DNA of 64,000 bases from a virus (taxonomy: Duplodnaviria; Caudoviricetes). Position numbers and translations under genes: made by a program. The stretch is taken from IMG/VR virus record IMGVR_UViG_3300014205_000002, positions 144,265-208,264 of that record. One strand, given 5' to 3'. The first letter of the stretch is position 1. Each line of letters begins with the position of its first letter. Of the stretch, positions 15,561 to 59,555 are shown in pieces. Below the pieces are notes generated by a model. The model did not search any database. It was not told the DNA's origin and saw only the letters and a list, made by a program, of their open reading frames with translations.

Positions 15561-16414
15561 GTGCGATCGTTCCGCAGCGAGACCGTCGGTCGGGCCAGGC
15601 CGGGCGGCAGGGTCGGGAAGTCATTGAAGACGGCGGCGGAGATCTCGCGCGTGCCCGTCGAGATGTCGCCCGTCAGCCCCTTGGCCCGGTTGAACTCCTT
15701 GATCTTCTCGACCAGCTTGAGGTGATCCGACGTGACGTGCTCGCGGATATAGACCGTGCCGTCCATGATCGCCTCCATCCGGAGCGTGCTCATGCCGCAC
15801 TTATCGATCGCGCAGCGCCTGGCGTCGTCGGTCTTGGTGATAAAGATGCTCGGCTCCAAGTTACCAGGATCCGTCGAGTGGACGTCGAGGATGCCGTCCT
15901 TGTAGGCGTGGCCGAGACCCAGCTGTACGCAGGCTTGCAGGATCAGGGCATTGTTCGGAAGGCGGCAGTGGCACTGCGGCTCAAAGCTCGACTGCCCCTG
16001 CTTGCCGGACACGGTGAAGGTCTTGGTCTCCTTGGCGCGGTGCGGGCAGCTGAGGATCTTCGGCTCGGGCAGGCCCGCGAGCATGAGCAGCTGCTTGGTT
16101 TCGGCCACCACGATCTTGTAATCGTCGATATCGAAACCGGGGTCGAGCCCCTGGCTTTTCAGTGCCGCACCGTCGGAAATATAGGGGGCCATATCGATCC
16201 CCACGGGGGTAGAACCGTAGGTCTCGCAGAGTGCGCGAATGTGGTTGACCACCGGCCAGATCAACTCCTGCATCCCCGTCCCGAAAGGGGCGGGCGGAAT
16301 CAGGCCGGTCTTGGCGTGAATCTCCCTGGCGACGTCGGCCTTGAGGCGGCGCACCACGCCGTCGAGTTCGAAGAACACGGCCGTCTTCTTCTCGCCGAGA
16401 TAGATCGCGGTCAT
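15557..16414 (-). CDS. HAD-superfamily (GmhB/HisB-N-like) phosphatase homolog, degenerate
   Basis: AVFFELDGVV, CPH...CHCRLP. The catalytic Asp and Lys are substituted. Confidence 0.65.
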   Translation of the reverse strand: MTAIYLGEKKTAVFFELDGVVRRLKADVAREIHAKTGLIPPAPFGTGMQELIWPVVNHIRALCETYGSTPVGIDMAPYISDGAALKSQGLDPGFDIDDYKIVVAETKQLLMLAGLPEPKILSCPHRAKETKTFTVSGKQGQSSFEPQCHCRLPNNALILQACVQLGLGHAYKDGILDVHSTDPGNLEPSIFITKTDDARRCAIDKCGMSTLRMEAIMDGTVYIREHVTSDHLKLVEKIKEFNRAKGLTGDISTGTREISAAVFNDFPTLPPGLARPTVSLRNDRT

Positions 16415-18223: not shown

Positions 18224-18859
18224 TCAGCGCACGCCAGAGGTGCCCCAGCCACCCACCCGGTTGGACGGCGGCAGTGCGTCGACGGGCGTCCAGTCGCCCT
18301 CGACGTAGGCCTCGACACAGATCTGGGCGATGCGATCACCGCCGGTGACCCGGAACGGCCTGTCGGAGTGGTTGTAGAGCACCACGCCGATCTGCTCGCG
18401 GTAGTTGTTGTCGATCAATCCCGCACCGACCTCGATGCCCTCGTTTGAGGAGAGGCCCGAGCGACTCTCGACCACGATCTTGTAGCCGGGTGGCAGCGCG
18501 ACCTTGATGCCGATGCCGAAAGTCTTGCGGCCGCCTGCGGGAATGACGATACTGTCGGCGTTGCCCATGCGCAGAAACTCATAGCCGTCGTCGCCATTGC
18601 GGTACTTGAGGCTGTAGGCGAAGACGTCCGAGGCCACGTCGCCCGGCTGCATGGTCTTGGGCGCAGTGGCCCCTTTCATGACCACCGTGGGAATGCTCAG
18701 CTTGGGGGCGAGGCCCGCGAGTGCGACGATGGCGCGAGCCAGCTCCGGCGTGATGGCGATCGCGTCGGTGTTCAGGCTGCTGGAACCAGCCATGACCGGC
18801 AGGCGCTGGAGCGGCAACACGAGCTCGCCCTGGGCGTTGGTGTAGTGACTAGCGGGCAT
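18224..18859 (-). CDS. dut: Trimeric dUTPase
   Basis: ESRSGLS, GLIDNNYR, GDRIAQ, RVGGWGTSG. Confidence 0.93.
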   Translation of the reverse strand: MPASHYTNAQGELVLPLQRLPVMAGSSSLNTDAIAITPELARAIVALAGLAPKLSIPTVVMKGATAPKTMQPGDVASDVFAYSLKYRNGDDGYEFLRMGNADSIVIPAGGRKTFGIGIKVALPPGYKIVVESRSGLSSNEGIEVGAGLIDNNYREQIGVVLYNHSDRPFRVTGGDRIAQICVEAYVEGDWTPVDALPPSNRVGGWGTSGVR

Positions 18860-20732
18860 GGGGCAGCTCCTTGGTTACAGCGAGTCCTGCGCGCTTGACG
18901 AAGGGAAGGAACTCGGGGACGGGGTGGAGGATGCGCTCGCCGAGCGCGATCCTGATCTGGTTACCCAGATGCCAGCCGAATAGCGGGGGTACCGCATTGC
19001 CGACCTGCCTGTATTGGGCCGAGCGGGGGCCCTGGAAGACCCAGTCGTCGGGGAAACTCTGGAGCCTCGCGGCTTCGCGCACGGTCAGCCGGCGCAGCCT
19101 GCGTGGCGGCGGAGCTGGTACGATGTGGGTGTGGTTGGCCCCGCCCGAGGCGACGATCGTCTGCGCGGGCTGGTCCATGTCCTGGACGCGACCACGGCCG
19201 TTGAAGATGGTCTCGGCGGGGTTTCCGGGCCGGGCCATCAACTCCTTCGCGCGCTCCGAAGCGGGCACGATGGCGATCGCGTTGTCCTCGTGGTTGGGCA
19301 CGGGCAGCAGGTTGGCATTGCCGCAGTCCTGCTCGGCGATGATGGTCTTCGCTGGTGCGTCCCAGCTCATGGCCGGATTACTCAGCTTACCCGCGAGGGC
19401 GCTGGGCCTAGGCGGCGAGGCCGGCTCGTGGTTGGGGACGTCACCCATGATGAAGTCGACGTTACCCGAGGTGTTGATCGTGCGGCCTGGCGCATCGGGA
19501 TCGAGCAGCTTCATGCCCTGACCGACGTGCCCTGCGAGGATGGCCTCTTCATGCGTGCCCGTGTAGACGCTGGCCTCGTGGTTGGCGGGGATGGCCTGCT
19601 GGTGGTGGGCTCGTACGGTGTTGGCAGGCTTGTCCCAGGCGTGCAGGCCGTTGGGGCCGGCCCCGCGATCGGCGGCGTGCTCGATGTGCCTGATCTCACC
19701 GGGCGTGAGCGGGTGATTCACGTGGTTCTCGACCGGTAGCAGGTTCACGTTCCCCGAGCGCTGGTGGGCGATGATGCACGACGCGGGCTCGTCGAGCGCC
19801 ATCGGAGCCTTCATCGACCAGTCGCTCTCGCCGGTGAGCGCGGAGGGTACCGGCGGGGGCGCGGCCTCATGGTTCTCGACGGGGATCAGGTTGTTGGTGC
19901 CGGACTCCTGCTTGGCGATGATCGTACGCGCGACCTGGTCGAGTTCCATCGGTGGGTGTTTCTGAGCCCAGGAGCTGTCGGCGATCGCCGCACATGGTGG
20001 CGGCGGAGGAGCTGGCTCATGGTTGGCGGCGGGGGCGAACGCGGGACCGTAAGGGGCCGGCAGATCGCTGATGGCCTGACGGACCGTGACCCATCTGCGC
20101 AGCGTACCGAAGAAGCCCGGAGTGGGAGTGTCCGCATGCGTCGGCTTCGGCCAGGGGAAGAAGCTCTCGTCGCGTCGGCCGAAGAAGATCACGCGGATGC
20201 GCTTCTGGGGAACGCCGTAGTCGGCCATGTTGATCATGCGGTACTCGACGCTGTAGCCGATGTCCCTGAAAGCCTGGAGGATCACGTCCTTGACCAGAGT
20301 CTGGTCGTCGTCGGTCTTCATCGTGAGTAGCCCCTTGACGTTCTCCATGACGAAACCCCACGGCTTGGCCTCGTCGACGACCCGTACAAACTGCCAGAAC
20401 AGCTTGTTGCGCGGATCGTCCGCCTCGCGCTTGCCAGCGGTAGAGAACCCCTGGCAAGGTGGCCCGCCCACCACGAGGCGGGCCTGACCGGAAACCAGTC
20501 CTGCCGCCTCAAGGATGACCTCGGTGGGAATGGCGCAGATATCGCCCTTGAGCACGGGGATCCCCTGGCGGTTGTGGCGCAGCGTGTCGACGGCGTGCCC
20601 GTCGAGTTCGACCGCAACGCGCACGTCGAACCCCGCGGACTCCAGCCCGATATCCAGGCCCCCGGCCCCCGAGAACAGTGAGATGATCGGCATCGGCCGG
20701 TTGGTCGGACCGTGCATGGGGACGATGGTCAC
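18849..20732 (-). CDS. dcm: DNA cytosine-5 methyltransferase with an expanded, repetitive variable region
   Basis: FSGAGG, GGPPCQGFS, MENVKGL, YGVPQKRIR, RRLTVREAARLQSFPD, YRQVGNAVPP. Confidence 0.95.
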   Translation of the reverse strand: MTIVPMHGPTNRPMPIISLFSGAGGLDIGLESAGFDVRVAVELDGHAVDTLRHNRQGIPVLKGDICAIPTEVILEAAGLVSGQARLVVGGPPCQGFSTAGKREADDPRNKLFWQFVRVVDEAKPWGFVMENVKGLLTMKTDDDQTLVKDVILQAFRDIGYSVEYRMINMADYGVPQKRIRVIFFGRRDESFFPWPKPTHADTPTPGFFGTLRRWVTVRQAISDLPAPYGPAFAPAANHEPAPPPPPCAAIADSSWAQKHPPMELDQVARTIIAKQESGTNNLIPVENHEAAPPPVPSALTGESDWSMKAPMALDEPASCIIAHQRSGNVNLLPVENHVNHPLTPGEIRHIEHAADRGAGPNGLHAWDKPANTVRAHHQQAIPANHEASVYTGTHEEAILAGHVGQGMKLLDPDAPGRTINTSGNVDFIMGDVPNHEPASPPRPSALAGKLSNPAMSWDAPAKTIIAEQDCGNANLLPVPNHEDNAIAIVPASERAKELMARPGNPAETIFNGRGRVQDMDQPAQTIVASGGANHTHIVPAPPPRRLRRLTVREAARLQSFPDDWVFQGPRSAQYRQVGNAVPPLFGWHLGNQIRIALGERILHPVPEFLPFVKRAGLAVTKELPHAR

Positions 20733-22507: not shown

Positions 22508-25021
22508 TTACTTGCAGCGCGAGTAGCCGCAGGTCGGGTTGATGCACTTGGCACAGCCCTCGCCGTGGTCGAGACGGCTGCCGCAGTCGGGGCATTCGGG
22601 GGTTTCGCCCTGATCGAGGGCGTGCAGGTTGGCGGCGTGCTGGGCGTTCGGTGCTGGCGGCAGCGGAAGCGGCAGCGCGAGGCCCAGGGCGAAGGTCACG
22701 GCCTCGCGGGGCGCGAGATCGATCGGACCACCGGACCAGGTGAGCGGCGCACGCCGGATCGCCTTGCCGATCGCATCTGGCACCGAGAGCACCTGGTTGT
22801 CGCCGAACCCCGAGGGGTCGGCCCCGCGGATGCCCACCAGGGCATGCGAAATGTCCTCGACGGGCACGCGGTGCTGGAGTGCCAGGCTGATCAGCTTGCC
22901 GATGGCCTCGCCGAACGAGTTCAGTGTGCCGCCGGAGCGCCCGATGTTCGTCACGACCTCGCGCAAGCCCTCCTCGTCGTAGTTGAGGGTGGTGTAGAGC
23001 TTGCCCTCGCCGACCTGCTTGGTCATGGTGAAGCCCGTCAGGACCTCGGGCCTGATCCGTTTGCCCGCCCGCATCTCTGCCATCAGGCTATCGAGACGCG
23101 CCTGGAGTTCGGCGAGTTGGGGCGGCGGGGCGATCGCCGCGGGGGCGGTCACCTGGGTGAGCGAGAGCGGCTGTGCCTCGCGGGAGTTGTTGCGGTACAC
23201 GGTGATGCCCTTGCAGCCCGTCTCGTAGGCCAGGTGGTAGGCTTCCTCGACGTCCGCCTCGGTCGCGCTCTCAGGGAAGTTGATCGTCTTGGAGATGGCC
23301 GAGTCGTTGAAGCGCTGGAAGGCGGCCTGGGTGTGAACGTGCTGGGCCGGGCTGATGTCGTGGGTGGTGACGAAGATGCGCGCGAGGTTGAAGAGGATCT
23401 TCATCTCGCCCGTCGTGAAGAACAGGGCCCTATCAAAGGGGTTGTCCGCCACCAACTCGTTGAGCGAGCCGTGGTAGTGAGTGTCCAGCGCTTCGAAGAC
23501 ATAGGCGATGCGTGCGTCGTCGAAGCCCTTGGCCCGGAGCGCGTCTGCGAACACGCGATCGGCGTCGAACATGTGGGTATCGGCCTGGAAGCGCTTGAAG
23601 GCCAGCGCGAAGACGGGCTCGCAGCCGCCCGAGGTATCGGCGATCATGGAGAGGGTGCCCGTGGGCGCGCAGGTCGTGGTGTTGGAGTTGCGCAGGCCGT
23701 GGATGTCGACTTCGTCGGCGAGCCAGTCGTAGCGGCAATCCTTGTGCTTGCCGGGGCGCGCGTGACGCTCCATCAGCATCTTGCGGAAGATGGCGTTGGA
23801 CTCGGCTTCGTGGCCGATGCGCGCGGGGAAGACGCCACGGGCCTTGCCTAACTCCAGGCTCTTGACCTTCGATTCGTAGTCGATGAAGCTCATGACCTCT
23901 TCGGCGAAGGCCAGGCCCTCGGGGCTACCGTAGGGGATCTGGAGCTTGAACAGCGCCCGGGCGAAGCCCATTACGCCGAGGCCCGTCTTGCGGGTGGCGT
24001 TCGAGACCTCGGCGATCTCAGGGATCGGGTACTTGTTCGCGCTGATCACGTTGTCGAGCATGTGCGCCGAGGTGTGAACGACGCCGCGCAGACGCTCCCA
24101 GTCGAAGAATGTGCAGTCGGGGCCGCCCTGCGGCATGTCCATGACGAACTGCTCCAGGTTGATCGAGCCGAGATTGCAGGATTCATAGGGGATTAGGGGC
24201 TGTTCGCCACAAGGATTGGTGGCCTCATACTTGCCCAACCAGGGCACGGGGCAATACTCGTTCATGCGGTCGATGAACACGATGCCCGGCTCACCCGTGG
24301 TCCAGGCGCGCTTGACGATCTCCTTGAAGACGGGCCGCGCGCGGATTCTGTCGGTATCCTGGCCTGTGCGCGGGTTGATCAGGTCGTAGTTGTTATCATG
24401 AACGACGGCGTCCATAAACCTGTCGGTGATCGCCACGGAGATGTTGAAGTTCGTGAGTTTGGAGAGGTCTTCCTTGTGGCTGATGAAGCTCAGGATGTCC
24501 GGATGATTGACGCGGAGGATGCCCATGTTCGCGCCACGGCGCATGCCGCCCTGCTTGATGCTCTCGGTGGCCGCGTTGAACACGTCCATGAACGAGATCG
24601 GACCCGAGCTCTCGCCCTTGGTGGACTGGACCATATCCTTGGCCGGCCGCAGGCGCGAGAAGGCGAAGCCGGTGCCGCCGCCGGTCTGGTGGATCAGGGC
24701 GGCGTTCTTGATGGTTTCAAAGATGCCCGCGAGGTCGTCGGGTACAGGCAGGACGAAGCAGGCCGAGAGCTGGCCCGTGCGGGTGCCGGCGTTCGCCAGC
24801 GTGGGTGAGTTCGGCAGGAAGTCGCCGTCCCAGAGGAGTTGGAAGAACGCCTCCTCGACGAGCGCCGTCTGCTCGGGCGTCTGGCCATGTTGCAGTTCGA
24901 CGGCTGCCAGTGTGCGCGCGACGCGCCGCATCATCTCGATGGGCAGTTCGATCAGGTTGCCTTGGGCATCCTTTTCAAGGTAGCGCTTCTCCAGTACGGT
25001 GATGCCGTTCTTGCTCAGCAT
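22508..25021 (-). CDS. nrdJ: Class II (adenosylcobalamin-dependent) ribonucleotide reductase
   Basis: PNSPTL, GQLSACFVLP, GGGTG, RRGANMG, TNPCGEQ, CNLGSIN, APTGTLS, SKTIN, KGITVYR. C-terminal TSCPD-like domain and CPDC..C..C. Confidence 0.95.
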   Translation of the reverse strand: MLSKNGITVLEKRYLEKDAQGNLIELPIEMMRRVARTLAAVELQHGQTPEQTALVEEAFFQLLWDGDFLPNSPTLANAGTRTGQLSACFVLPVPDDLAGIFETIKNAALIHQTGGGTGFAFSRLRPAKDMVQSTKGESSGPISFMDVFNAATESIKQGGMRRGANMGILRVNHPDILSFISHKEDLSKLTNFNISVAITDRFMDAVVHDNNYDLINPRTGQDTDRIRARPVFKEIVKRAWTTGEPGIVFIDRMNEYCPVPWLGKYEATNPCGEQPLIPYESCNLGSINLEQFVMDMPQGGPDCTFFDWERLRGVVHTSAHMLDNVISANKYPIPEIAEVSNATRKTGLGVMGFARALFKLQIPYGSPEGLAFAEEVMSFIDYESKVKSLELGKARGVFPARIGHEAESNAIFRKMLMERHARPGKHKDCRYDWLADEVDIHGLRNSNTTTCAPTGTLSMIADTSGGCEPVFALAFKRFQADTHMFDADRVFADALRAKGFDDARIAYVFEALDTHYHGSLNELVADNPFDRALFFTTGEMKILFNLARIFVTTHDISPAQHVHTQAAFQRFNDSAISKTINFPESATEADVEEAYHLAYETGCKGITVYRNNSREAQPLSLTQVTAPAAIAPPPQLAELQARLDSLMAEMRAGKRIRPEVLTGFTMTKQVGEGKLYTTLNYDEEGLREVVTNIGRSGGTLNSFGEAIGKLISLALQHRVPVEDISHALVGIRGADPSGFGDNQVLSVPDAIGKAIRRAPLTWSGGPIDLAPREAVTFALGLALPLPLPPAPNAQHAANLHALDQGETPECPDCGSRLDHGEGCAKCINPTCGYSRCK

Positions 25022-25983: not shown

Positions 25984-27134
25984 GCCGGCACCTGGGCGAA
26001 ATGGGCCTCGATCGCGTCCGGTAGCATCAATGGGTCAAGCACACCCAGATACTGCATGATCAGCGCGGTGGACGAGCTGAGGGCGATCGCCTGCTCCAGC
26101 TGGCGTTGATTGACGAAGCCCTGGCTCCAGGCGACCATGGCCCGGGCGCTGGCCTGCGGCCCGGTGTAGGGATTGGCCTCCTGGGTCAGGCCTGCCACGG
26201 CGGCCTCCGCACCCTGGCGGTGAGCCTGTTCAACGCCCACGACCTGCCGGAGATCCTCGCTGCTCGTGAACAGGCGCTCGCGCACCTTGGCGTAGAGCAC
26301 CCGGTAGCGCGAGAGGCAGCGCATGATTCGCTCGAAGTTGGTGCCGGCCTGTTCAGTCTCGGGCTCTCCCCGCAGCGCGTCGGCGATCAGGGCGTCGCGA
26401 TACGACAAGGCATCCTTCGCCATGCCGGCCTCGGACACGGCGGCGGCCTCGCGGCTGCGGGCGATTGCAAGTTCACCGGTACTCGCGAGGGCCTCAGCGC
26501 GCACCAGCTCCGTGCTGGCCTTGAGCGTCTCGATCGCCTTGGTTAGCTGTTCGCTCTCGGCCAGTAGCTCGCAGACGCGCTGCTCGGCAGACTCCGCGCG
26601 CTCCTCTTGGGTGCGGATCTGGTCGATATACTGCGCCTCAATGGGCGTGGCTCCGCCGGTGCCGTAGGCCAGGAAGTTGTCGAGGAAAGCGTTGTAGCCA
26701 TCGCAGCTGCGGCCATTGAGTGCTTCTTCGACCATTTCCTGGCGGTCAAGTGGGAGGAGTGCTCCGTTGTAGAGGCCGTTGAGCAGGCATTCATAGTGGA
26801 GCTTGCGCAGCACGGGCTTGAGGATGGCGCTGCCCGATAGCTCGGCGCGCAGGAGCTGGTTCTCCTTGGCGAGTTGGCCGTAGCTGAGTTCGTAGTTGCG
26901 TATCGTGTCGAGCGCGCCAGCGAGGTAGCGACCAGCCTCTTCGGAACCGGCCGCGAGCTGCTTAATCAGCGCCGTGAGGTCCTGGCGGGTGAGGTGTTTG
27001 AGGTTCTCTCCCTGGTTCGTGTGGCGCTGCACCAACTCGGGGATGCCGGCGATCGCCGCCTGGACCACCATGAGCGGGCTGGTGAAGTGGCCGTTGGTCA
27101 CAACGACGGGGATGTCGGGGGTAGATTCACTCAT
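25980..27134 (-). CDS. Coiled-coil protein with a C-terminal RMF-like motif
   Basis: AHRQGAEAAVAG...NPY...AWSQGF. Confidence 0.6.
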   Translation of the reverse strand: MSESTPDIPVVVTNGHFTSPLMVVQAAIAGIPELVQRHTNQGENLKHLTRQDLTALIKQLAAGSEEAGRYLAGALDTIRNYELSYGQLAKENQLLRAELSGSAILKPVLRKLHYECLLNGLYNGALLPLDRQEMVEEALNGRSCDGYNAFLDNFLAYGTGGATPIEAQYIDQIRTQEERAESAEQRVCELLAESEQLTKAIETLKASTELVRAEALASTGELAIARSREAAAVSEAGMAKDALSYRDALIADALRGEPETEQAGTNFERIMRCLSRYRVLYAKVRERLFTSSEDLRQVVGVEQAHRQGAEAAVAGLTQEANPYTGPQASARAMVAWSQGFVNQRQLEQAIALSSSTALIMQYLGVLDPLMLPDAIEAHFAQVPA

Positions 27135-27997
27135 GAGGCTTGTAGCTCCTTGCGTTGCTTGCGCAGCATGGACTGGTAGGTGAGCACGGAACTGACGTCC
27201 GCAAAGCCCAGCTGCTGCTTGATGTCGTGGGGGTCCTGATTGGCTTCGAGGAGTTCGATGATGCGGCTCGCGCGCATCACCTGGGGGGTCAACTGGGGCG
27301 TCTGTGCGCCCGCGGCGTTGCGTACGATCAGCCAGACGACATGCCGGCTGATCATGCCGCCCTTCATACCGTAGAACATGAGGTCCTTGCGCGAGGCCGA
27401 CTTCGGGACGGCGCGCACCTGGGCGTAGGCTACATAGGCCTCTTGGGCGATCGCGTCCAGCACCAGGAGGTCGTCGCGCTCCGCACTGACGAACAGCAAG
27501 GAGCCGGACCGAAAGAGGCTCTCGCCGTCGCCGGCGGCGTTGAAGCGCATGGCCTGAATTTCACCGGGCCGTATGCCCAGCCGGAACAACTCCATGATGA
27601 AGCGCCGCGAGGTGCCGAGGTGGTAGCGCGCGCAGGCCTCGGTGATCGCATCAGGGGGGTAGAAGGCGCTGTCCTTGCCGTCTGGACTCGGCCACTCCAC
27701 GTCATGCAGCAGCGCCGTGTCCAGTTGGCCCCGCTCGATGTGGTGGCGCAGGAAGCCGCGCAGGGCGGCCCCCTTGCGTGTGGCGGTGTTCGGCCTGGCC
27801 CGGCGGCGGGTGTGGGTCATGTAAGCCGCCAGAATCTGGCTGGAGAGGTCGCCGAGATCCCGTGCGTCCGGGCAGTGCTCTGCGAGGTACTGAGTGAAGT
27901 CGGCGAGGTCCCCGCTGTAGGCGCTCGTGGTCGCGACCGCCTTGTTCTGCTCGATCAGCTCGTTGACGTAGGCCTGGGTGGACTGAACGATGTTCAC
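27131..27997 (-). CDS. XerC/D-like tyrosine recombinase with a degenerate catalytic pocket
   Basis: TTSAYSGDLADFTQYL, ALRGFLRH, GIRPGE, LTPQVMRAS, IKQQLGFAD, LTY. GTG start overlaps the upstream stop. Confidence 0.8.
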   Translation of the reverse strand: MNIVQSTQAYVNELIEQNKAVATTSAYSGDLADFTQYLAEHCPDARDLGDLSSQILAAYMTHTRRRARPNTATRKGAALRGFLRHHIERGQLDTALLHDVEWPSPDGKDSAFYPPDAITEACARYHLGTSRRFIMELFRLGIRPGEIQAMRFNAAGDGESLFRSGSLLFVSAERDDLLVLDAIAQEAYVAYAQVRAVPKSASRKDLMFYGMKGGMISRHVVWLIVRNAAGAQTPQLTPQVMRASRIIELLEANQDPHDIKQQLGFADVSSVLTYQSMLRKQRKELQAS

Positions 27998-28347
27998 AGC
28001 TTTTTTCCTCGCTCCTGGCCGATCTTGACGAGCACGTCGAAGCGGCGGCAAGCGTCCTCGAACATGGGCCCGACGACGGCGCATTCGGTGTCCTGCATGT
28101 ACAGGTTTGCGATCATGGCCTTCTGGCCCGTGGTGACGCCGTCACCGACCCAGAGCGCCCATTCCTGGTTGAAGTTGTCCTTGGTCATGGCCCTGAGCGC
28201 GTCCTCGGAGAACGACTCGATGTCGCGATCCTCTTCGGTCTCGATCGCCGCCGGGATGTCCCAGATGGGGAAGGGAACAAGAGAGCCCTTCTTCTCCTTC
28301 TTCTCCGCCGGCGCTTTCGGCTTACTGGCGACGGATCGTCTTGCCAT
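27994..28347 (-). CDS. Hypothetical protein
   Basis: 117 aa, coupled. Confidence 0.7.
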   Translation of the reverse strand: MARRSVASKPKAPAEKKEKKGSLVPFPIWDIPAAIETEEDRDIESFSEDALRAMTKDNFNQEWALWVGDGVTTGQKAMIANLYMQDTECAVVGPMFEDACRRFDVLVKIGQERGKKL

Positions 28348-35081: not shown

Positions 35082-35106
35082 CGGGTACCTCTGCGGCGGG
35101 TGCCGC

Positions 35107-35138
35107 TGACAGAATGAGGGGGAGCGTGTGGCGATCGC
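35107..35138 (-). promoter_or_regulatory. Bipartite motif GCGATCGC-N14-CATTCTGTCA, copy 1
   Basis: Intergenic, upstream of the 35081 start. Same layout at 36769 and 38331. Confidence 0.65.
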
Positions 35139-36754: not shown

Positions 36755-36768
36755 ATGGTGCTCCTCGT

Positions 36769-36800
36769 TGACAGAATGTGATCGACTCTATGGCGATCGC
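36769..36800 (-). promoter_or_regulatory. Bipartite motif GCGATCGC-N14-CATTCTGTCA, copy 2
   Basis: Intergenic, directly before the SD of the 36754 gene. Confidence 0.65.
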
Positions 36801-37165: not shown

Positions 37166-38305
37166 CTAGTAGCCTTCGTGTTCGTGGATGGTGTAGTACT
37201 TCGTCGCGAGCATGGCCGGACCAGGCTCAAGGACCACGTCTTCATCGGGGTCGTCCTTGAGGATTGAGTCCCGCTCAAGCTCGGCTGAGGCCTTGCTTGG
37301 GCAGGTCATTGGCGAACTCTGCCGAGGGCCCACTTTGTAGGTTTGGAGCGTGGTGTTGCCGCATTCGCTGTGGAGCGCGCCGCCCGCGCCGACGCCCGTC
37401 CGAACGACCCAGCAGCCGGTGCGAATTGGCACCATTAGATTGCAGTGGAGGCAGCGGATTCCCTCCAAGCGCCCATGGCCGAAGACCGAGTAGCCAACAC
37501 CCTCGTCGGTCTCGGCCGCACGACTGAGCGCCTTGCTATGAAGGTTGGCAGCAGCGGCATCGAGCCCGTACTGCTCGTGTGGCACGGGTGCCTCGACGCT
37601 GTATGAGTCGCCCTTGGCATAGTCGATACCGATCACGCTCTCGGCGTTGAGGGCGATCGCGTCGATCTTCTCGGCACCAGGCAGGACGAAGCAGGCTGAC
37701 AGCTGTCCAGTGGGCTTGCGCCTGGGCAGGAGGCGATCGTCCACGCCGTAGAGGGTGAGCAATGCGAGGTCGCCGCCGGCGTGGTAGGTGACCTCGACCT
37801 GGGGGCCGCCCTCGACCTCGTGCTCGGCGTCGAGTATCTCGATGCCCTGGGTCTTCATGAGGGTGACCAGACGCTTGGCCTGTCGAACCATTCCCGCAGG
37901 GTCGATGCCGATGTGAATGAAGCTCTCACTGGAACGCGCGCCCGCTTCAATCTCAACGGGGACGAAGCCAGCTCCGGTGAGCAGCTGCCAAGTTCTGAGG
38001 ATATTGGCAGGCACTTCGTCGTGGGTGATGGGCTCCGCGAGAACGATGGCGCAGTCTTCCTCGTCGGTGCCCTCGAAGTCGAGCGCGTAGCACTCGTCGG
38101 CGATCGCGATGACCGCCTCCGCGCGCGAGTTGATCTTGCTGATGCGATCGTTGGTGATGTGGCAGTAGACCTTGCCCACTTCCTGAATGGCCGTGTGGTA
38201 GTCGAACAGCTCGCGCATCACCTTGTCGGGGTCGAGTCGGCCCGTCGCCGGGTCTTCCACGAGGGGCTTCCAGAAGCTGGCGTAATTCTTCTCGTAGTCT
38301 TGCAA
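37166..38305 (-). CDS. Mosaic hypothetical protein containing an RNR active-site peptide
   Basis: TTG start, SD AAGGAG. Internal TGQLSACFVLP. Confidence 0.7.
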   Translation of the reverse strand: MQDYEKNYASFWKPLVEDPATGRLDPDKVMRELFDYHTAIQEVGKVYCHITNDRISKINSRAEAVIAIADECYALDFEGTDEEDCAIVLAEPITHDEVPANILRTWQLLTGAGFVPVEIEAGARSSESFIHIGIDPAGMVRQAKRLVTLMKTQGIEILDAEHEVEGGPQVEVTYHAGGDLALLTLYGVDDRLLPRRKPTGQLSACFVLPGAEKIDAIALNAESVIGIDYAKGDSYSVEAPVPHEQYGLDAAAANLHSKALSRAAETDEGVGYSVFGHGRLEGIRCLHCNLMVPIRTGCWVVRTGVGAGGALHSECGNTTLQTYKVGPRQSSPMTCPSKASAELERDSILKDDPDEDVVLEPGPAMLATKYYTIHEHEGY

Positions 38306-38330
38306 TCCGGGCTCCTTTGGCTCTTGCTGC

Positions 38331-38361
38331 TGACAGAATGTGGCAGGTGCGAGGCGATCGC
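38331..38361 (-). promoter_or_regulatory. Bipartite motif GCGATCGC-N13-CATTCTGTCA, copy 3
   Basis: Intergenic, upstream of the 38305 start. Confidence 0.65.
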
Positions 38362-45563: not shown

Positions 45564-45959
45564 ATGCCCGATCCTGAAAACGCCCCCGCGCCCGATGTCG
45601 AAACCAAGTCGTTGGGCGACACCCTGACCGAAGCTGGTGAGGCGATCGTCGAAGCGATCGTCGAGGCGGTCGAGGCGGTCACCGATGCTGTAGACGAAGC
45701 CTTCGGCAGTGGCAGCACGACGCAGCCAGCGCCCATCAAGGAGGGCGACCTCGTCAACTACTCGCTCGACTTGGACAGCCCCTACGCCGGCCAGGTGCGC
45801 GGCGCGATCGTGGTCAAGGTCTGGAATGCGACCTGCCTGAACCTGCGGGTATTCGCCGACGGCACCAACGACTATCCGCCCAATGTGTCCGACTGGAAGA
45901 CGTCGATCGTCGAGGGTGCACCTGGTGCTCCGCGGACCTGGCACCGCAAGGGCGTATAG
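45564..45959 (+). CDS. Hypothetical protein with an SH3-like C-terminal domain
   Basis: EGDLVNY..AIVVKVW..LNLRVFADG..W. SD AAGGA. Confidence 0.65.
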   Translation: MPDPENAPAPDVETKSLGDTLTEAGEAIVEAIVEAVEAVTDAVDEAFGSGSTTQPAPIKEGDLVNYSLDLDSPYAGQVRGAIVVKVWNATCLNLRVFADGTNDYPPNVSDWKTSIVEGAPGAPRTWHRKGV

Positions 45960-55145: not shown

Positions 55146-58100
55146 ATGACCATTGACAACACTGCGATCACCACGGAGTTGCAGGCTCAGTACGCGTCGG
55201 ACAAGCCCGCCTCGTATGCCCATTACGCGCTGCGCCTGATCGAGAAGCTCTACAAGGCGCGCCAGGTCGAAGAGACACCCGTTGAGGCGTCCTTGACGGC
55301 GCGCATTCAGGTCGAAGAGGTCGCCTCCGGCATCGTCACCGTCGAGGCGCTCCTGCGCGAAGATGTCGCCTACGCCTATACGTCGGCTGCGGAGCTGCGC
55401 TCGCAGGCCAAGCTCGCGCTGGTGATGGCGAGCAGCCAGGCGCTGACCTTCGCGCATGAAGCGGGCGACGGTTACGTCACTGTCACCGGACCGAACCTTC
55501 CGACTGCGGGCATCGAGGCCGGCATGTACGTGAAGGCCAAGGTGCGCGGCGGTTTCCCTCGGACCAAGGGCGTTCAGGTGATCGCGAAAACCGGGGAGGG
55601 CACAAAGTGTCGCGTCGAGGCCAAGGTCTCCGAGCGCGCCATCAGCGTCGGGCGCATCGACGGCACCTTCGCCTACGGCAGCGTCGAGTGGCCGGTGGCC
55701 TCGGCCACCTCCGCGACGGCCATTCGCTTCGTGGGGCAAGCGTTCGCGGACATCGAGAAGCCCGGCGTCGACTTCACCGACAAGGTTGCGGCGGGCGACA
55801 TCGTGCGCGTGCTCGCGCGGGCTGCGGCCCCGGCGACCGTCAACCCTGCCTTCGTGGGCTACTACACGGTGATCGCTGCGGGGTTGAGCTTCGTGCGTGT
55901 CTCCGCCACCCGGCTCACGCGCACGAGCGAGGGCGTCTATGCGGTGGAGGTGCCGGCGGCCGCGATGCCCGAGTTTGAGGACAACGTCGACGTTCAGGTG
56001 GTGCGCACACGCCAGGACGTGACCTACCTGCGCGATGCCGGCGAGACCTTCGCGGGCATTGGGGCGGACGACTGGGTTAGAAACACGCAATCGCCACGCA
56101 AGGTCTTCAAGGTGCTGGAGCGGCTCAGCTCGGGGTTGCTGCTACTGGAGAACAAGCAATACACCGGAAACCAGGCCCCCTACACCCTCGTCGGGCCCGT
56201 TGGGTCGACCTTTGGCACCAACCTCTGGAACTACGGCATCTACCGGGCTCCGCTCGGCAAGATGGCGATCTTTCGCATCACCGATCCCGATGCCAACTTC
56301 AACTACGTGCGCGTTGGCGACATGGTGAAGCTCAAGAACCGCTCGGGTCTGCTCGATCCCACCGCCAACACCAGCAAGGTGCCGGGCATCTACAAGGTGG
56401 CGTCTGTCCCCAGCGCGAACGTCATCAACCTGGAAAGCACGCGCCACGATCAGGTTGGCAACCAGTTCGTGGCCGATGGCACCTTCTACGAGACCTTCAA
56501 CGACAATGCGGCCTATGAGGCATACCGCTTCGCCCAGGCATTCCCGCACGCCGCGCTCTACAAGGTGACGAGCGTGGGCGCTGGCTACGTGCGACTCCAG
56601 ATGAACTTCTTCAACGGTTATGCGGGCTATGCGGGCGTCTTCACGCAGGGCGGGGCTGTTGACGTGTTTGATGACGTCATGGATGCGGACTTCCTGCGTG
56701 TCCATGATGATGCGCTCGCGCTGATCGCGGCCGGAACCACCCTCAACGTCAAGATTCAACCAGGCGACTACATCACGCTCGTGCGGCGCACCGTGGCACC
56801 CGCGACCCAGCGTGCGGGCACGGGCGACACCTTCCGCGTCGCCAGCTCCCCGCGCAAGGATGTCCTGCTGCTTGAGCGACAGAGGCTGCGAGGGGACTTC
56901 ATCGACGCAGGCGCTCGGCGCGCACCATACCTGACTTTCGGTAGTCAGCTAACGGGCGAATGGGCGGATGCCTGCGACTTCACGGCTACCCGCGTATTCC
57001 CTGGCGAGTACCGGTTTGCGCTCGCGACCGTGGAAACCGGCGGGCCACTCCAGGGCTTCTTTGCGGCCGCGCGCGCCGGCGACTACATGGAGGTAGCCAG
57101 TGGGCCTGCGCAGACGATCGGGGCCTGGATGGTCGAGGCAAAGGTGAGCGACAACCAGTTGCGCCTCAAGAAGGACGCGCTTTTCAGTCGACTCGCCGAC
57201 GTCTTTACGCCAGCCGTCCAGACCATCAGCCCGTTTCGCGAGAACCTGCCCATCGTCATCTCGCGCTACGCGGATCATGTCACCGAGATGTACCTGGAGC
57301 GAGCGGGCGGCTGGGGCGACGCGACGATCTGGCTCTACAACGACTCCAATCATGACGTCTTCACCTTCGTCTACGACGGGGTTGAGCGCACCTTCGCCAG
57401 CATGGCGATCGTCGGCAACATACTGTACCTCCATCCACGCTTCGTGACGGGCTCAAATGGAAGCTACGTGCTCGGCGCGCTCAATGCGACGGCGTTTGCG
57501 ACCGAACTCGTGCAGGTCACGCGTATCCGGCCGGTCGAGGATCTCGACATCACGAATGCCTACCTCAACATCTTCCGCACGCTGATCCTGCCCAACGACA
57601 AGCGCCAGGTGCTAGACAGGATGGTCAATGCGATCGTGCCGCCGAACGTGAGCGATCGCTACAGCGACACCATGCTCGCGGCCGCACGCATGGCTTGCGA
57701 TCAGGTTAGCTACATCTCGGATACCGCTGTGTCAGTCAAAGGCTCCTCCATCTCGCCTTCTGTCGCCCGTGACGCACTGCCACCCTTTGAGTTTCAGCCA
57801 GACGAGGTCCTGCTGAAACAGGACGCCTTCCAGCAGGCTGTTGCGGTCGCCGTGTCCGTCGACTTCGATCCTGGCTACCTCGGCAAGACGTTCTCCGAAC
57901 TCAAGGATCTGTACGTCGACGCCAGACTGCGCGAGGACGGGTTCACCGCGCTCTCCGCCTACGCTGCCGCAGCCGGAGTACCTCCAGGGGTTCGCCGAAT
58001 GGAGCTGGCGCTCGCGGCGGTGGGCAAGATGTTCGTCGCCAAGAACCAGGACGCCGTCGAGTCGGCATTGCGCCAGCGCAACCGCGCCGATCTGATCACG

Positions 58101-59555
58101 AGCTTCAACAACCAGATCACCAACCTGAAAGCCATCGTCGCGAGCTTGCTTCCCGCAGGCTTCGCCAATGCCGATCGCATGTTCGTCAAGGACGACCCGA
58201 TACCGATCGCCGACTCCCTGTTGTTCCTGATCCCATTCACCACGCTCGGCAAGATCAAAAACCCCTCCGCCCGCGAGCGACGCGATGCGCTCAAGGGCAT
58301 GATCTCGGTGCCGGCCGATCGCACGCTCCGGGCGAAGCGCCGCAGTTATGCACTGCGCAAGAACCACGCCAACAAGTGCGCGACGAGCGCAGAGGACACG
58401 ACGCGCCACCTCACGGTCGCGACGGATCCGGCGATCGTCACTGCCTTGTCGAGCGCACTCAGCGTCTTCCAGAGCTGCACGACCAGCCAGGGCGCGCTGG
58501 CTGACGACATCGGTGAGGACCTCGACGCCCAGGGCTCCGAACGGCCCGAGATCTTTCCGTCCGTCGACCCCAACGACCAACAGGCCTTCTCCCAGAGCTA
58601 CGCGAGCGTGGACACGCCCCCAGCGGCCCAGATGCAGCTGGTGGTTCGCCCGACGCCGGCCGTGCCCTTCCCATCGACCGCAGCGCAGCCCGTGGCTGCC
58701 GACGCGGCCGGCGGAGACGGCGTCATCGTGCCGGTCGTGCGGGACGGAAATATCACCAACCTGTTCGACAATGACGTGCAGGACTTCCGACAGACGGGCA
58801 TCGTGCTACCGCTCGACTTCCTTGACCAGGACCCTGGCAAGAACAACCGCGATCGCCTGAGCTCGATCTTCCTCGTCGACAGCAACGGCACACCCGTGAG
58901 CAACTTCGCCATGAAGGCAGCCGGCAAGCCACGCACGAACGTCTATAACCACTTCATCCTCCAGAAGTGGGACGAGACGCACATCGAGAAGGTCCAGCTG
59001 CAAGACACGCTGGGGGACGGCTTCGTACTGAACACCTTCGGCGCAGCCCCGCAGGCCTGGAGCCTGTCTGGCGTGCTGCTCAACGATATCCTCAGCGATC
59101 AGCTGGTGCGCTTCCGCGATCTATGGGACTCGGACTTGCGCGCCTCGAAGCTCGCGAAGAACGGCTACAAGATGGCGATCAACGTGCCTGCCGCTGGCAT
59201 CATCGTGCTGGGCTACGGCATCAACCTCCAACTCTCCGTCGACGCCAACGGAAACGAGGGCCTGGTGCCCTTCGCCATGCAGTTCATCGTGGCGCGCTGG
59301 TACCCGCTACCGCTGATCAACCACGTGGACGCGAACAAGATGGGGATCGCCCGCAAGCTCACCGAGATGAACGGCGGTCGCGTGTTCTCCCGGCTGCGTC
59401 CAGCCGGCCAGCCGGCGAAGGCTGCACTTGCAACCCCCCGCGCGAGCAACCTGCTCGACTCGGCCAAGGCCAAGGCCGGCGAGGCCCTCACGAGCCTGCT
59501 CGATCCAGGCCTGCGACAGAGTGTCAGCGGCCTCGGCATCAACTTCTTCGGGTAG
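55146..59555 (+). CDS. Large tail/baseplate structural protein
   Basis: 1469 aa with repeated beta modules (xGDxV..GxYxV). The C-terminal FILQ..E..IEKVQL..T.G..FG..P..SGVLLN domain resembles tail-tube/baseplate initiators. TATAAT and GGAGG lie upstream. Confidence 0.6.
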   Translation: MTIDNTAITTELQAQYASDKPASYAHYALRLIEKLYKARQVEETPVEASLTARIQVEEVASGIVTVEALLREDVAYAYTSAAELRSQAKLALVMASSQALTFAHEAGDGYVTVTGPNLPTAGIEAGMYVKAKVRGGFPRTKGVQVIAKTGEGTKCRVEAKVSERAISVGRIDGTFAYGSVEWPVASATSATAIRFVGQAFADIEKPGVDFTDKVAAGDIVRVLARAAAPATVNPAFVGYYTVIAAGLSFVRVSATRLTRTSEGVYAVEVPAAAMPEFEDNVDVQVVRTRQDVTYLRDAGETFAGIGADDWVRNTQSPRKVFKVLERLSSGLLLLENKQYTGNQAPYTLVGPVGSTFGTNLWNYGIYRAPLGKMAIFRITDPDANFNYVRVGDMVKLKNRSGLLDPTANTSKVPGIYKVASVPSANVINLESTRHDQVGNQFVADGTFYETFNDNAAYEAYRFAQAFPHAALYKVTSVGAGYVRLQMNFFNGYAGYAGVFTQGGAVDVFDDVMDADFLRVHDDALALIAAGTTLNVKIQPGDYITLVRRTVAPATQRAGTGDTFRVASSPRKDVLLLERQRLRGDFIDAGARRAPYLTFGSQLTGEWADACDFTATRVFPGEYRFALATVETGGPLQGFFAAARAGDYMEVASGPAQTIGAWMVEAKVSDNQLRLKKDALFSRLADVFTPAVQTISPFRENLPIVISRYADHVTEMYLERAGGWGDATIWLYNDSNHDVFTFVYDGVERTFASMAIVGNILYLHPRFVTGSNGSYVLGALNATAFATELVQVTRIRPVEDLDITNAYLNIFRTLILPNDKRQVLDRMVNAIVPPNVSDRYSDTMLAAARMACDQVSYISDTAVSVKGSSISPSVARDALPPFEFQPDEVLLKQDAFQQAVAVAVSVDFDPGYLGKTFSELKDLYVDARLREDGFTALSAYAAAAGVPPGVRRMELALAAVGKMFVAKNQDAVESALRQRNRADLITSFNNQITNLKAIVASLLPAGFANADRMFVKDDPIPIADSLLFLIPFTTLGKIKNPSARERRDALKGMISVPADRTLRAKRRSYALRKNHANKCATSAEDTTRHLTVATDPAIVTALSSALSVFQSCTTSQGALADDIGEDLDAQGSERPEIFPSVDPNDQQAFSQSYASVDTPPAAQMQLVVRPTPAVPFPSTAAQPVAADAAGGDGVIVPVVRDGNITNLFDNDVQDFRQTGIVLPLDFLDQDPGKNNRDRLSSIFLVDSNGTPVSNFAMKAAGKPRTNVYNHFILQKWDETHIEKVQLQDTLGDGFVLNTFGAAPQAWSLSGVLLNDILSDQLVRFRDLWDSDLRASKLAKNGYKMAINVPAAGIIVLGYGINLQLSVDANGNEGLVPFAMQFIVARWYPLPLINHVDANKMGIARKLTEMNGGRVFSRLRPAGQPAKAALATPRASNLLDSAKAKAGEALTSLLDPGLRQSVSGLGINFFG

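Follow-up and report, generated by a model that had tools for sequence, protein, structure and literature searches.

A copy of the active-site motif of a phage's own ribonucleotide reductase within an unrelated gene

How does a protein without any further resemblance to a ribonucleotide reductase (RNR) come to contain eleven consecutive residues of an RNR active site? The question arises in the complete 208,264-bp virus record of an uncultured phage, both contig ends of which carry a 123-bp direct terminal repeat. The window, i.e. the whole stretch of DNA that was analysed (64,000 nucleotides), comprises its final 64 kb. The original prediction, made from this window, was that a peptide of the phage's RNR, NrdJ, had been captured by a protein of 379 residues and kept under selection as a mimic, in line with a decoy function. 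The two occurrences of the peptide are:

37679 to 37711, minus strand: copy of the RNR motif TGQLSACFVLP, residues 199–209 of the 379-aa protein
24746 to 24778, minus strand: presumed donor motif TGQLSACFVLP, residues 82–92 of NrdJ

We find the identical 11-aa peptide at precisely these positions, with both genes on the minus strand; a plus-strand reading of the same coordinates can be dismissed, as its translation yields stops. The two copies have the same orientation and frame and lie 12.9 kb apart. In DNA, the copy in the 379-aa gene reads act gga cag ctg tca gcc tgc ttc gtc ctg cct, and the copy in nrdJ reads acg ggc cag ctc tcg gcc tgc ttc gtc ctg cct. These 33-nt sequences are identical at 29 positions, and their four differences are indeed all synonymous, each in a third codon position. 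They are also one-sided: all four are found within the first 14 nt, affecting four of the first five codons and none of the last six (Fisher one-sided 0.015), and the final 19 nt (GCCTGCTTCGTCCTGCCTG) match exactly. The copy in the 379-aa gene uses three rare codons ending in A or T, namely ACT, GGA and TCA.

The presumed donor is the following gene:

22508 to 25021, minus strand: NrdJ, an intact class II ribonucleotide reductase of 837 aa, encoded by one continuous ORF without an intein

Its layout comprises an RNR all-alpha domain, the barrel, a TSCPD domain and a C-terminal Cys cluster, with the Pfam domains Ribonuc_red_lgN, Ribonuc_red_lgC and TSCPD. The cysteine of the motif aligns with that in the LSACFVVP of Thermotoga maritima NrdJ and the QLSSCFLL of human R1. 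We take it to be the counterpart of E. coli NrdA Cys225, presumably located on barrel strand beta-A, as seen in the structures of E. coli R1 and of the T. maritima enzyme. In class I and class II RNRs, this redox-active cysteine touches the substrate ribose, and the active site lies within a 10-stranded barrel (PMC11551348). The 379-aa protein shares with class II NrdJ (T. maritima NrdJ, PDB 1xje; E. coli NrdA Cys225 region) an 11-residue segment with a redox-active cysteine, in a version identical to that of the phage's own enzyme, but lacks a barrel, a radical-Cys loop and any other similarity to RNRs. Two further genes near nrdJ may be mentioned: three genes upstream, a tyrosine recombinase (Phage_integrase with a SAM-like N-domain; 27131 to 28084, minus strand), and downstream, a 627-aa protein with a C-5 cytosine methylase domain (18849 to 20732, minus strand).

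Is the shared peptide a copy, or have two unrelated sequences converged by chance? We collected all exact peptides common to different genes from 224 crude gene calls (61,810 aa) covering the whole genome; for k = 6–9, the analytic expectations agreed with residue-shuffled proteomes. Different genes share 162 6-mers, twelve 7-mers, two 8-mers, one 10-mer (in a paralog pair), one 11-mer (TGQLSACFVLP) and one 35-mer, which is due to the terminal repeat. In a proteome of this size, the expectation for an exact 11-mer shared between genes is 1.2e-4. The same search served to look for other captured peptides, and hence for a general pattern, and returned none of at least nine residues apart from TGQLSACFVLP, the paralog pair and the terminal repeat.

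The DNA comparison is less striking. The two copies score 40.1 bits in BLAST, a value that is reached or exceeded 0.75 times per genome in a codon-shuffled null. Short DNA matches of 30–40 bits between distant sites are about twice as frequent in this genome as in the null, at every score level; if this excess holds at the higher score, about 1.5 matches per genome would be expected at 40.1 bits or more. Leaving the terminal repeat aside, the genome has nine such matches, which are mostly located in paralogs or local repeats. As the DNA score alone is unexceptional, the significance of the match therefore rests on its in-frame, all-synonymous pattern. In addition, the run of six identical codons at the end has a probability of 0.008 under independent codon choice, given the peptide, and both copies use CCT, which accounts for 10% of the Pro codons in the phage genome. 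While a DNA score of this size arises about once per genome in the null, the protein-level expectation, the rare CCT and the six identical codons in a row make pure coincidence very improbable.

A donor outside this genome can be discarded, as the exact 33-mer is absent from IMG/VR and a semi-degenerate version of it is absent from 185k species genomes. Moreover, it is the NrdJ of this phage that the peptide matches, and not RNRs at large: the same motif reads TGQCSACFVLP in the closest NrdJ that we found (IMG/VR, 55% identity), LHMLSACFVVP in T. maritima NrdJ and PQLSSCFLL in human R1. Since it is specific to this NrdJ and encoded by largely identical codons, including the rare CCT, it must derive from a DNA-level copy from the nrdJ lineage of this phage. 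Judged by this comparison, the shared peptide is a real copy with DNA ancestry in nrdJ, and to call it captured was appropriate.

The copy is short. No Pfam family matches the 379-aa protein at E<=1; the RNR large-subunit profiles (PF02867/PF00317) do not match it, and it contains no NPCGE radical-Cys loop. In BLASTP against NrdJ, the match reaches 19 residues (12 identical), with no further segment in register. Beyond the shared 33–34 nt, the flanks are at background level, with about +1 in BLOSUM62 over the eight downstream residues and 13 of 24 identical DNA positions. That the protein shows no other RNR similarity is therefore correct; it is not an RNR, and we rejected the alternative raised alongside that statement, a decayed RNR remnant, as the match ends after 19 residues.

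To see what the copy was inserted into, we turn to the recipient gene and its parts:

37166 to 38305, minus strand: host gene of the peptide, 379 aa, TTG start, coding signature throughout, one of a two-member family
38312 to 38361, minus strand: signals upstream of the host gene, namely a bipartite promoter-like element GCGATCGCC-N13/14-CATTCTGTCA (38328 to 38361) followed by the Shine–Dalgarno sequence (SD)
38066 to 38305, minus strand: N-terminal three-helix module of about 75–80 aa, residues 1–80, pLDDT about 98
37727 to 38023, minus strand: alpha/beta domain, copy 1, residues 95–193, pLDDT 56–82, homologous to each of the two tandem copies of its relative P0004
37502 to 37726, minus strand: degenerate middle segment, residues 194–268, a linker with the RNR peptide followed by a remnant of domain copy 2
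37166 to 37501, minus strand: C-terminal Cys/His-rich domain, residues 269–379, 42% identical to P0004

This is a real gene, because it shows the coding signature along its entire length (GC3 0.81, GC2 0.43) and has an SD (AAGGAG, 38312 to 38317, minus strand) 6 nt ahead of its TTG start. The promoter-like element occurs in three minus-strand copies (35104 to 35138, 36766 to 36800 and 38325 to 38361), each directly upstream of an SD and a gene start. These are candidate phage promoters that may bound small transcription units, one of which would consist of the host gene and a 119-aa gene.

The 379-aa protein has no Pfam family at the threshold given above and no significant PHROG family, and fold searches gave only matches too weak to assign a function (TM by query <=0.19, to SpoT and Pol mu), with small RsfS/iojap-like proteins reaching a TM of 0.5 by target only. 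Its sole full-length relative among about 15 billion proteins is P0004, a protein of 440 aa encoded on Logan contig SRR30224755_3258 (locus L006), in a syntenic locus that likewise has a 119-aa gene and a DUF1643 gene alongside. Searches of phages, IMG/VR, metagenome contigs and protein databases returned no further relatives, and no strain variants of the host gene were found in metagenome contigs. The two proteins share the N-terminal module, the alpha/beta domain, the Cys/His-rich C-terminal domain and the gene neighbourhood. In the C-terminal domain, C285, H287, C288, C298, H312 and C315 are conserved, as are the motifs GHGxxEGxRCxHC, LQTYxVGP and DDPD and a C-terminal EHxGY; the conserved Cys and His residues suggest a metal-binding site in what is probably a new domain.

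P0004 differs from the 379-aa protein at exactly the place of interest. Residues 1–193 and 269–379 of the latter align to P0004, whereas BLAST cannot align residues 194–268. The alpha/beta domain occurs here a second time in P0004, whose residues 253–317 match residues 129–193 of the 379-aa protein (E 6e-9). The 379-aa protein must therefore have lost or degraded this second repeat; compared with P0004, half of domain copy 2 is gone. The two intact repeats of P0004 are connected by a longer linker of 33 residues, which reads ...SVEPPQPLEEIATSLNPG, and the RNR peptide occupies part of the corresponding inter-repeat position in the 379-aa protein. At the site aligned to the peptide, P0004 reads EPPQPLEEIATSLNPG; as to microhomology at the junctions, the comparison with this distant relative, about 36% identical, yields only a common A-x-S-x-x-P-G skeleton and CC(C/T)GG at the right junction. 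This comparison shows a patch that appears lineage-specific, lies in a variable segment and is missing from the homolog. The original prediction had named absence of the peptide from homologs as an observation that would speak against it, and the only homolog does not have it.

The same comparison explains the sequence VIGIDYAKGDS, which follows shortly after the peptide and had been likened to the GxD motif of the terminase nuclease. This reading is not supported: VIGIDYAKGDS aligns with FETIDSGDGKTHD in the second domain repeat of P0004 and is, on this alignment, a remnant of the lost alpha/beta repeat. Residues 210–266 reach a local score of 33 against the phage's own TerL, a chance-level value that is attained in 30 of 300 shuffles and surpassed by other genes. 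There is also a 21/22-nt in-frame match between nt 638–659 of the host gene (37647 to 37668, minus strand) and terL (45607 to 45628 of the genome, minus strand), which begins ten bases past the RNR patch and encodes KIDAIALN in the 379-aa protein and QIDEIALK in TerL. We rejected it as a second captured piece: some 26 such matches exist genome-wide, and the sequence is of a common GATCG-rich, GATCGACGCGATCGC-type word; its position so close to the RNR patch has a p of about 0.02, calculated post hoc. Nor is the 379-aa protein a patchwork, as BLASTP of the whole protein and blastn-short against the genome gave nothing else.

The loss of DNA in this segment bears on how the copy came about. It might be the relic of a larger rearrangement, such as a fusion between the host gene and nrdJ or a longer nrdJ insert, from which deletion left eleven codons. 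The missing half of domain copy 2 demonstrates that deletions have occurred here, the weak extension of the BLASTP match to 19 residues might be the edge of a longer insert, and the common orientation and frame of the two copies would fit a fusion; but similarity in the flanks falls to background past 33–34 nt and no RNR Pfam signal remains, and we regard such an origin as improbable. The simplest explanation is that decay had already begun in this segment when an ectopic templated patch, specific to this lineage, was written into it, or when an illegitimate junction formed there and was trimmed. On this view, the strand that bears the active-site cysteine was copied in frame, as about 33 nt, from the nrdJ of the same phage into an unrelated early gene, and landed in its most expendable part, the linker that precedes what is left of the second domain repeat. 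Such a copy would most likely have arisen by ectopic templated repair, template switching or short-patch gene conversion; it may also stem from a chimeric junction from which the surplus was trimmed afterwards. Among the features expected of a templated patch, two are present: the genome contains a donor whose DNA agrees more closely with the copy than the peptide alone would require, and the corresponding site in P0004 does not have the patch. The one-sided placement of the four differences, on the other hand, is not what a single copying event followed by uniform drift would predict.

Once in place, was the peptide retained for a purpose? The earlier claim that it is kept under selection is weakly suggested. 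The absence of non-synonymous differences next to four synonymous ones hints at a constraint on the peptide, with a p of about 0.01–0.04 on the assumption that this nrdJ is the donor and that the copy drifts neutrally; the value of about 0.04 is conditional on four changes and about 9.3 synonymous sites among the 33, and a likelihood ratio gives a p of about 0.01. What weakens the claim is that the pattern also has neutral explanations. The changes may have occurred on the nrdJ side. Alternatively, the part of nrdJ upstream of the motif may later have been swapped for the allele of a relative, with a crossover inside the conserved motif, an account that covers both the all-synonymous pattern and its one-sidedness. 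The polarity of the four changes cannot be read from the closest nrdJ, at 55% identity, nor do the profiles of GC3 and identity give information on it.

A functional reading would have the RNR active-site strand displayed on a flexible linker and kept by selection as a bait or mimic, whose target would be a host or phage factor that recognizes this segment of NrdJ and is titrated or triggered by it. Besides the all-synonymous differences, such a role would suit the AlphaFold2 model, in which residues 194–282, peptide included, have a pLDDT of 26–34, consistent either with a flexible segment or with one that cannot be modelled from two sequences. It would also suit the signals ahead of the host gene, namely a promoter-like element and an SD of its own, in a block of early type. 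That a short RNR-derived peptide can act as a competitor is an established principle: mimics of the R2 C-terminus, such as the herpes simplex nonapeptide YAGAVVNDL, copy the exposed docking tail of the RNR small subunit. TGQLSACFVLP differs from these in its source, an active-site segment of an enzyme that belongs to class II and has no small subunit. The motif is a poor candidate for a surface epitope, because its cysteine sits in the active site inside the RNR barrel (PMC11551348), where no recognition surface is obvious. The peptide is missing from P0004, the genome holds no second captured peptide of comparable length, the supposed terminase motif next to it is not real, and the synonymous pattern can be explained neutrally. 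We therefore find no support for the mimic or decoy idea and consider such a function unlikely. A more specific version, in which the phage keeps the strand as bait, either for a host factor that recognizes NrdJ while it is nascent or unfolded or for some factor targeting the cysteine segment, seems a little less likely still.

The shared element might also reside in the nucleic acid instead of the peptide. The 19-mer GCCTGCTTCGTCCTGCCTG could be a recombination, endonuclease or antisense site, with the peptide identity as a by-product; this would agree with the exactness of the final 19 nt next to a stretch that holds all four differences. Introns, inteins and homing endonucleases are known to occur preferentially in phage RNR genes (PMC3653736), and the tyrosine recombinase gene lies close to nrdJ. 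However, if the differences were distributed at random among the first 15 nt, all four would fall in third positions with a probability of 5/1365 = 0.004, which points to a constraint from protein reading. Further, neither a third nor a complementary copy of the 19-mer is present in the genome with up to three mismatches, none of the six genes flanking nrdJ has a homing endonuclease domain, and nrdJ itself is uninterrupted. Together, this makes a DNA or RNA element a rather remote prospect. We also rejected a relic of an intein or homing endonuclease, as neither the 379-aa protein nor its neighbours have such Pfam domains, and a template/variable repeat pair of a diversity-generating retroelement, as just 33 nt are shared and the differences are at G or C of nrdJ, whereas such a pair would differ at template adenines.

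On balance, we somewhat favour the reading in which a templated nrdJ patch entered an expendable linker and persists there as a tolerated hydrophobic strand-turn element and not as an RNR mimic. Endonuclease-driven breakage and repair, for which phage RNR genes are known hot spots (PMC3653736), may often bring nrdJ DNA into such copying events. Comparable processes have been described: in phage T4, templated mutagenesis is documented for imperfect repeats, whether direct or indirect (Schultz and Drake, Genetics 2008, PMID 18245334, cited as reference 41 of PMC8604942), and in yeast, template switching has driven protein innovation (PMC8604942). In these cases, too, a short tract is rewritten from a similar sequence of the same genome, and several residues change at once without an adaptive cause. 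The phage case differs in that donor and recipient are unrelated genes 12.9 kb apart and that the tract spans a whole 11-codon catalytic motif. If it is only a scar, it represents a clean natural case of a catalytic motif that was copied in frame into an unrelated gene within one phage genome, and the all-synonymous pattern between such copies is by itself no proof of selection on the new copy. If it is functional, it would point to a so far unknown interaction centred on the RNR active-site strand, and would strengthen the view that pieces of essential phage proteins are put on display by the phages themselves; as a bait, it would be one case of a wider phage habit of showing fragments of core proteins.

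Two other short peptide repeats were noticed in this genome, both involving a 1469-aa protein (55146 to 59555). A second NrdJ motif, FSRLRPA (residues 121–127; 24641 to 24661, minus strand), recurs at residue 1414 of this protein (59385 to 59405, plus strand), with DNA differences that are all in third positions; on its own this recurrence is not significant, because twelve shared 7-mers arise in the genome by chance. The 8-mer LYKVTSVG is common to the 1469-aa protein (56556 to 56579, plus strand) and a 1955-aa protein (15637 to 15660 of the genome), and the two sites have 20 nt of exact DNA identity, which could reflect chance or another short patch.

Finally, the N-terminal module of the 379-aa protein is of interest in its own right. 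An exhaustive HMMER search of 1.84 billion representatives yielded 799 matches, all but one of which cover just residues ~1–80, with the consensus DYEKxYxxFWKxIVE...ELxDY...KVYCHITGGRISK. The module has no Pfam or PHROG family. It is found mostly in phage proteins of about 100 aa (Bacillus SPbeta-like and Herelleviridae phages), and in gp44 of Burkholderia phage BcepF1 it is part of a larger protein annotated as a sulfatase-modifying factor enzyme. It thus represents a large phage domain family that merits a definition.
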